From NCBI RefSeq assembly GCF_041248615.1, contig NZ_CP158426.1: DNA of 64,000 bases; one strand, 5' to 3'. The notes below the pieces were generated by a model. That model searched no databases. It was not told the origin of the DNA and saw nothing but the letters and a program-made list of their open reading frames with translations. Shown piece by piece: positions 25,200 through 25,349 of the stretch. Position 1 is the stretch's first letter. Each line of letters opens with the position of its first letter. Both the position numbers and the translations under genes were made by a program. The DNA is from Escherichia coli. GTDB lineage: Bacteria; Pseudomonadota; Gammaproteobacteria; Enterobacterales; Enterobacteriaceae.

Positions 25200-25349
25200 T
25201 GCATGAAGCTGCCAAATGATGTCAACGTGGCTCATTTAGCAGCTTAACATCATCTTCAGTTATCACCGGCCCCGGAGAGTATCATCCATACGCATTACTT
25301 CCTGACAACTCATCGCCGGAGAGACGATGAGTTGCAGGATTTCATATGA

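Follow-up and report, generated by a model that had tools for sequence, protein, structure and literature searches.

The 150-bp mscM-yjeM spacer of an Escherichia coli genome as a probable and widespread deletion allele of yjeN-yjeO

In Escherichia coli K-12 MG1655, the genes b4156-b4159 stand in the order yjeM, yjeN, yjeO, mscM, with yjeM at 4383839-4385341, yjeN at 4385393-4385707, yjeO at 4385704-4386018 and mscM (yjeP) from 4386047 on the opposite strand, and the stop-to-stop interval between yjeM and mscM measures 705 bp. To our knowledge, neither YjeN nor YjeO has a known function. YjeO is a DUF2645 inner-membrane protein: the K-12 protein matches Pfam PF10840 (3.8e-41), and the searches returned this family only, with no relatives in PADLOC or PDB. 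YjeN is annotated as uncharacterised and has no direct match in Pfam, NCBIfam, PADLOC or PDB; an exhaustive HMMER search with YjeN (locus L001, 5394-5708) recovered 132 remote homologues, and because 43 of the 46 sampled match PF12395 (DUF3658), YjeN can be regarded as a predicted, divergent stand-alone DUF3658 domain protein. Our literature search found no mention of DUF3658 or DUF2645. The yjeN-yjeO unit is among the genes induced by sigma-E overexpression in K-12, with yjeO up 2.6-fold (PMC2731931), and yjeO is listed as an accessory gene associated with growth in milk in mastitis isolates (PMC11390585), so that its accessory status is already implicit in pan-genome work.

In the window, as we call the whole 64-kb stretch of E. 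coli DNA that was analysed, mscM occupies 21876-25199 on the plus strand (1107 aa; stop codon 25197-25199; assigned from the open reading frame list and the RefSeq annotation of NZ_OW967178.1) and yjeM occupies 25350-26852 on the minus strand (500 aa as annotated; stop codon 25350-25352). The two convergent genes are separated by exactly 150 bp (25200-25349), as an earlier note on this DNA had stated, and the annotation of NZ_OW967178.1, a RefSeq record that is 100% identical, agrees with this spacing. The same note had given the K-12 map correctly, and the one finding that it named as fatal to its claim, a spacing of about 150 bp in K-12 itself, is contradicted by the 705 bp of MG1655. The absence of yjeN and yjeO was likewise confirmed: tblastn and blastn with the K-12 proteins and DNA found neither gene in the 64-kb window, and tblastn with YjeN and YjeO together with blastn of the 705-bp K-12 interval disclosed no relocated copy there; for yjeO, the best tblastn match in the window had an E value of 0.46, and no open reading frame matched DUF2645. 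The alignment with MG1655 that the note had proposed sets 150 bp against 705 bp, with identity of 94-100% through mscM and yjeM and a drop to 63-78% that is confined to positions 25150-25360. The lineage of the window is itself thinly sampled: over 24700-25900 (1.2 kb), only 3 of the 5,426 complete E. coli genomes reach 99% identity to it, the rest being 95-99% identical, and the exact match over this segment is isolate 362, from a Madrid hospital.

When aligned with MG1655, APEC17, R11, a divergent Escherichia genome, E. albertii and Salmonella (MAFFT), the spacer falls into three parts, namely an mscM-side hairpin, a remnant of yjeN and a yjeM-side stem-loop. The remnant is a decayed 5' stub of yjeN at 25247-25289 on the minus strand, with its ATG at 25289-25287 and a stub reading frame, ATGGATGATACTCTCCGGGGCCGGTGA, that runs from 25289 to 25263; when a 1-nt frameshift is allowed, the stub reads MDDTLRG/PVITEDDVKLL compared with MDDTSRDPAITEDEIRAL in YjeN. 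By blastn, it is 78.6% identical to the 5' end of yjeN over 42 nt (25250-25290, E 0.011), and this match is the sole one in the window with an E value below 1 among blastn and tblastn searches with K-12 yjeN and yjeO queries. Still recognisable are the ribosome-binding site, the ATG and about 15 codons; of a complete yjeN frame of about 104 codons, some 43 nt are left, carrying the 1-nt frameshift and reading through 8 codons before a TGA. The putative ribosome-binding site, so assigned from its position, is the former Shine-Dalgarno sequence AGGAAG at 25298-25303 on the minus strand, 8 nt upstream of the stub ATG, where it overlaps the base of the yjeM-proximal hairpin. A promoter scan gave two weak promoter-like matches, both of which we treat as consensus noise; one of them, a sigma-70-like match at 25308-25281 on the minus strand (TTGTCA, a 16-nt spacer and GATGAT, 9 of 12 positions), shares bases with both the yjeM-side hairpin and the stub.

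As placed by the alignments, the deletion junction would lie at 25239-25252, where yjeN breaks off at about codon 17 (TCATCTTC...) and meets the right arm of the mscM-side hairpin, GCAGCTT; the junction sequence of the deletion allele is GCTCATTTAGCAGCTTAACATCATCTTCAG. In the alignment with E. albertii, about 580 bp are missing, comprising all of yjeO and the 3' 80-85% of yjeN. The earlier note had called for the junctions to be inspected for repeats, and this inspection yields an inferred microhomology of at most 5 nt (GCAGC or TCA), an intact progenitor not being found among the alleles examined, and no long direct repeats around the intact cassettes: in E. albertii, APEC17 and MG1655, the flanking direct repeats are exact ones of at most 8 nt or imperfect ones of 11-12 nt, which is the chance level. 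Nor did we see IS or integrase features at the cassette, and yjeN and yjeO are the only genes of the interval. The stub is about 75-79% identical to every intact yjeN examined (21-25% diverged), and copies of the deletion allele differ among themselves by at most 2%; this may mean either that the stub decayed before the present copies coalesced or that the deleted segment was imported from a diverged lineage.

How common is this arrangement? Our survey covered 5,426 complete RefSeq E. coli genomes, a set in which clinical lineages are over-sampled. The K-12 yjeN-yjeO interval was matched in 3,030 of them and was at least 80% covered, so as to include both genes, in 2,152; about 878 genomes hold roughly half of the interval, which corresponds to yjeO with a separately truncated yjeN. 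A 200-nt junction probe (25150-25349) was at least 80% covered in 2,395 genomes (44%), the junctions of these genomes being known as probe-coverage matches and those of seven carriers from base-by-base comparison. The two classes are complementary (3,030 + 2,395 = 5,425 of 5,426), and the three E. coli alleles stand at 44%, 40% and 16%, the deletion allele being the commonest state in sequenced E. coli. It is present in lineages such as CFT073 and O55:H7/O157:H7, and its occurrence in 2,395 of the 5,426 genomes disposes of the suggestion in the earlier note that the deletion might be strain-specific. The survey of presence and absence that the note had wished for is thus available as counts, and its phylogroup side consists of a few named strains, which would represent a spread across phylogroups. 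Intact yjeN-yjeO is found well beyond K-12, for example in APEC17, O26, O111, O121 and 33F4. The last of these (NZ_CM147849.1; L091, 660-1022) has a divergent yjeN-yjeO allele, 88% identical to that of K-12, whose yjeO, annotated at 363 nt, runs 19 nt into the 3' end of mscM; the two genes have no hairpin between them. In R11 (NZ_CP107155.1; L004, 1345-1443), about 254 nt plus 12 nt of yjeN are gone, including the start codon, and an intact yjeO directly follows a K-12-type yjeM hairpin. This yjeO-only allele, with its different junction and its background of K-12-type yjeM ends, is a second, independent deletion.

The reading that we favour, with a probability of roughly 0.88, is that the spacer is a single-origin deletion allele of the yjeM-yjeN-yjeO-mscM interval, about 580 bp shorter than its intact counterpart. 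The identity of the junction in every genome examined base by base points to such an origin, that is, to identity by descent; the seven carriers (the window, 210205630, O55:H7 CB9615, F5656C1, O139:H1 P15-25, WCHEC4533 and CFT073) share it with at most 3 differences in 150 positions. An ancestral yjeN-yjeO pair lay between yjeM and mscM, oriented as yjeM. Under this scenario, one event would have removed a segment that began near codon 17 of yjeN and ended shortly beyond the stop codon of yjeO. The ends of the progenitor would have resembled those of the present E. albertii allele, with a GAAGCTGCC...GGCAGCTTC hairpin after mscM and a yjeM end of the ...PELALD type accompanied by a CAACTCATCG hairpin. 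Because the microhomology at the junction is so short, illegitimate recombination or replication slippage would be a more plausible agent than a mobile element. What survives in the spacer is a dead yjeN stub, flanked by the hairpin on the mscM side and by the conserved stem-loop 3' of yjeM. The allele could then have reached distant lineages both by descent and by homologous recombination through the conserved flanking genes. In functional terms, the consequence is the loss of YjeN and YjeO and a convergent pair, mscM and yjeM, separated by two stem-loops that lack U-tracts.

These two stem-loops deserve separate consideration. The mscM-side hairpin, of which the earlier note made no mention, lies at 25206-25245 on the plus strand, with arms AAGCTGCCAAATGA and TCATTTAGCAGCTT and a predicted folding energy of -19.3 kcal/mol (z -3.3, plus strand). 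In the MAFFT alignment, its outer arms match those of the E. albertii hairpin downstream of mscM (TGCGTGAAGCTGCC...GGCAGCTTCA); with the bases beside the mscM stop included, the window has TAATGCATGAAGCTGCC...GCAGCTT where E. albertii has TAATGCGTGAAGCTGCC...GGCAGCTTCA. Only the outer arms are alike (about 13 of 14 nt plus 7 nt). A blastn-short search with this hairpin against all fetched loci matched deletion-type genomes only, the E. albertii match being unscored. K-12, APEC17 and R11 have an unrelated GCCGGATG...ATCCGGC hairpin after mscM. The yjeM-side stem-loop at 25300-25339 on the minus strand consists, in the sense of yjeM, of 17 pairs with one bulge and a 5-nt loop, and its predicted fold is stable on both strands (-27.2 kcal/mol, z -7.0, on the minus strand; -23.6 kcal/mol, z -5.5, on the plus strand). 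The inverted repeat that the earlier note had pointed out is real and forms the core of this stem, although the start that it gave for the left arm, 25309, is one base off: actcatcg occupies 25308-25315 and cgatgagt 25325-25332. The stem-loop is 100% identical in the window, APEC17, SCPM-O-B-8794 and E. albertii. The inner 12 pairs are formed in all seven sequences compared; relative to the K-12 allele class (K-12, R11 and 33F4), there are four double changes that are compensatory, and these four compensated positions argue for selection on pairing, within the thin statistics of what is one contrast between allele classes. The yjeM-side stem-loop also predates the deletion, since intact alleles hold it between the yjeM stop and the yjeN start.

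One possibility, which the earlier note had raised for the inverted repeat, is that the 25300-25339 element, possibly together with that at 25206-25245, acts as a shared bidirectional terminator for mscM and yjeM; we consider this somewhat unlikely. Both elements are stable stem-loops that sit just 3' of the two stop codons, as expected of intrinsic terminators, compensatory changes preserve the yjeM-side stem from one allele class to the next, and on the plus strand this stem is followed by AUUUCAUAU, which could serve as a weak U-rich tail for read-through from mscM. Yet a U-tract, taken as at least 5 U within the first 8 nt after the stem, is missing behind both hairpins: the plus-strand tails read UAACAUCA and AUUUCAUA and the minus-strand tails GAAGUAAU and CAUGCAUU, with AUUUCAUAU alone weakly U-rich, and in the sense of yjeM there is no U-tract after either. 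Furthermore, a terminator scan of 24900-25700 returned no terminator-like site on either strand, and an Rfam scan of 25000-25550 returned no match at E values up to 1. In intact alleles, moreover, the yjeM-side hairpin lies between the co-oriented yjeM and yjeN, over the yjeN ribosome-binding site, and this placement would better fit an intercistronic stem-loop that stabilises the 3' end or attenuates transcription. The best reading of the yjeM-side hairpin thus appears to be a 3'-end-stabilising or attenuating stem-loop of the yjeM transcript. Recurrence of the REP/BIME kind was not seen for either hairpin, each being single-copy in the 64-kb window with up to 3 mismatches allowed.

The ends of the flanking genes also vary. 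The last ten codons of yjeM (window 25350-25385, minus strand; L001 5307-5342; L092 3958-3993) fall into two old allele classes, with ...MANKPELALD in the window, APEC17 and E. albertii and ...VAKNPQWAVE in K-12, R11 and 33F4, the Salmonella counterpart being ...MSADPEWAAE. The YjeM end of the window, ...SRMANKPELALD, is identical to that of E. albertii over the last ten residues, and the K-12 end, ...SRVAKNPQWAVE, resembles the Salmonella ...SRMSADPEWAAE. On the other side, the last 50 nt of mscM are 92% identical between the window and K-12. The deletion allele is E. albertii-like at both ends, and APEC17 is a mosaic, with an E. albertii-like yjeM side and a K-12-like mscM side.

Could the deletion, as a variant of the favoured reading, have arisen in another Escherichia lineage, or within a long-separated allele class, and have later entered E. 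coli and spread there by homologous recombination? Several facts speak for such an import: the spacer ends are of the E. albertii type, with an identical yjeM end and hairpin and with mscM-side hairpin arms that are shared with E. albertii only; the stub differs from every intact E. coli yjeN by about 21-25% and shows some Salmonella states (GATGATGTTAAG against GATGAGGTTAGG); and the diversity of the allele, at most 2%, is below the approximately 2.3% of the flanking genes in the comparison of the window with CFT073. The same pattern could nevertheless be produced within E. coli by neutral decay of the stub combined with selection on the two hairpins, and the deletion junction was not found in genomes other than E. 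coli, as sampled by one genome per species and 80 loci without E. fergusonii and most cryptic clades. On balance, we consider an import unlikely.

The outgroups bear on the polarity of the change. The outgroup scan used the MscM C-terminus as the query and one genome per species, and it gave 80 loci, from which E. fergusonii and most cryptic clades are absent. In E. albertii (L007), the slot 3' of mscM holds yjeO (80% amino acid identity to K-12), yjeN (85%) and yjeM, and yjeO-yjeN-yjeM occupies the same slot in a second Escherichia genome that is about 93% identical. The latter (L006, NZ_JAATUR010000006.1, SCPM-O-B-8794), which is labelled E. coli, shows this identity to the window across both mscM and yjeM, and because such a value is far below the normal within-species level, it probably represents a cryptic-clade Escherichia filed as E. 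coli. YjeN homologues with more than 65% identity were found in Escherichia and Salmonella only; Salmonella enterica (L092) has the order epmA-yjeM-yjeN-mscM, without yjeO, and its yjeN orthologue is about 69% identical. Several species of Citrobacter, Enterobacter, Kosakonia, Leclercia and Pseudocitrobacter have a YjeO homologue (DUF2645; about 50% identity) immediately 3' of mscM, and in most other Enterobacterales of the scan mscM is directly followed by epmA.

The region 3' of mscM holds other genes as well. In seven Enterobacteriaceae loci, from Citrobacter werkmanii, C. amalonaticus, Enterobacter asburiae, Kosakonia sacchari, Pseudocitrobacter and two further Enterobacteriaceae, a conserved, unannotated gene for a protein of about 236 aa that is not yjeN precedes the DUF2645 homologue 3' of mscM (all on the minus strand: L010 4962-5992, L014 4961-5989, L022 3261-4316, L024 5080-6173, L027 5025-6053, L039 4947-5974 and L040 5015-6043). 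The gene is broken or truncated in C. youngae (L012) and Leclercia (L033). The sequence of its product includes ...FCKVDEYGFPHW...LLAGVAVSEVGG...SVGSIAIQ...SRYNRG...; it shows no resemblance to YjeN and matches nothing in Pfam, NCBIfam, PADLOC or PDB, and an AlphaFold2 model built on a 6-sequence alignment (pLDDT 44) is unusable. The protein may carry lysozyme-like or transglycosylase-like motifs. In Enterobacter sp. BIGb0383 (L042 4930-5900, minus strand), the mscM-epmA slot holds a gene with a SocA/Panacea antitoxin domain (PF13274, 3.9e-25) followed by a 133-aa open reading frame without a family match, a toxin-antitoxin-like pair that suggests a hotspot for small cassettes. One could go further and propose that the slot 3' of mscM is a long-lived Enterobacteriaceae hotspot for small two-gene cassettes, possibly toxin/immunity-like, at which polymorphism is maintained. 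We regard this as quite improbable; if it were true, presence and absence alleles would persist across species boundaries, DUF2645 would serve as an immunity-like or antitoxin-like membrane protein paired with a variable effector, and the intermediate allele frequencies, together with the two ancient classes of yjeM ends, one E. albertii-like and the other Salmonella-like, would reflect balancing or frequency-dependent selection rather than neutral loss.

The opposite polarity, in which the window is ancestral and yjeN-yjeO was inserted in the K-12 lineage, as the earlier note had entertained, we hold to be very improbable. Admittedly, yjeN and yjeO are orphan genes of narrow distribution, and at each of its ends the K-12-type block is markedly unlike the window, as an imported segment would be. 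However, the spacer holds the yjeN ribosome-binding site, the ATG and about 15 homologous codons, none of which an empty site would contain; the same slot is occupied in E. albertii and the divergent Escherichia by both genes, in Salmonella by yjeN and in other genera by yjeO; and intact alleles are found far beyond K-12, in APEC17, O26, O111, O121 and 33F4. Given the stub in the spacer, which supports the alternative of a deletion that the note had also offered, and given the outgroups with yjeN or yjeO in the same slot, the state of the window is derived, by loss and not by gain. The remaining alternative is that the deletion arose recently in this strain alone or that the gap is an error of its assembly. 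It could appeal to the sparse sampling of the lineage (3 of 5,426 genomes at least 99% identical over 1.2 kb) but has a next to negligible probability, since 2,395 independent complete genomes, CFT073 and O55:H7 CB9615 among them, have the same junction.

The deletion is an ordinary polymorphism that is already visible in the public annotation of reference strains. It shows yjeN and yjeO to be dispensable accessory genes, missing from nearly half of the sequenced E. coli, including CFT073 and O157:H7, and any function that they have in K-12, such as one connected with the sigma-E-linked induction of yjeO (PMC2731931), cannot be a core function of E. coli. The locus would provide a small example of an old structural polymorphism moved by homologous recombination, and its three alleles could serve as a simple PCR-size marker.

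Among the systems with which the single-origin deletion allele can be compared, Salmonella enterica (L092) shares the slot and the flanking genes and has yjeN directly after yjeM, but yjeO is absent and REP-like palindromes fill the 136 bp before mscM. The yjeO-only allele of R11 represents another loss in the same two-gene unit and at the same locus, with yjeO intact, unlike in the window. E. albertii NBRC 107761 (L007) comes closest, among the intact alleles, to the window spacer at both of its ends and differs in its intact yjeN and yjeO and in the shorter inner part of its mscM-side hairpin (GGATGTGAATCT). MG1655 has the same flanking genes in the same order and orientation and a stem-loop at the same place 3' of yjeM; it differs in its 705-bp interval with intact yjeN and yjeO, in its Salmonella-like ...PQWAVE yjeM end, in the sequence of the yjeM-side hairpin (CCCTATCGTC/GACGATAGGG) and in the GCCGGATG...ATCCGGC hairpin after mscM, where the window has the GAAGCTGCC type. 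The closest counterparts are the two reference strains that carry the deletion allele themselves. O55:H7 CB9615 (NC_013941.1) has the same 150-bp spacer, junction, pair of hairpins and yjeN stub as the window, and so does CFT073 (NC_004431.1, 4994063-4994212), in which 1 of the 150 positions differs and whose sequence aligns collinearly and gap-free with that of the window for 6,001 bp (97.7% identity). Where these strains differ from the window is in the flanking genes, which are about 2.3% diverged, so that the window would come from another lineage that carries the same allele.
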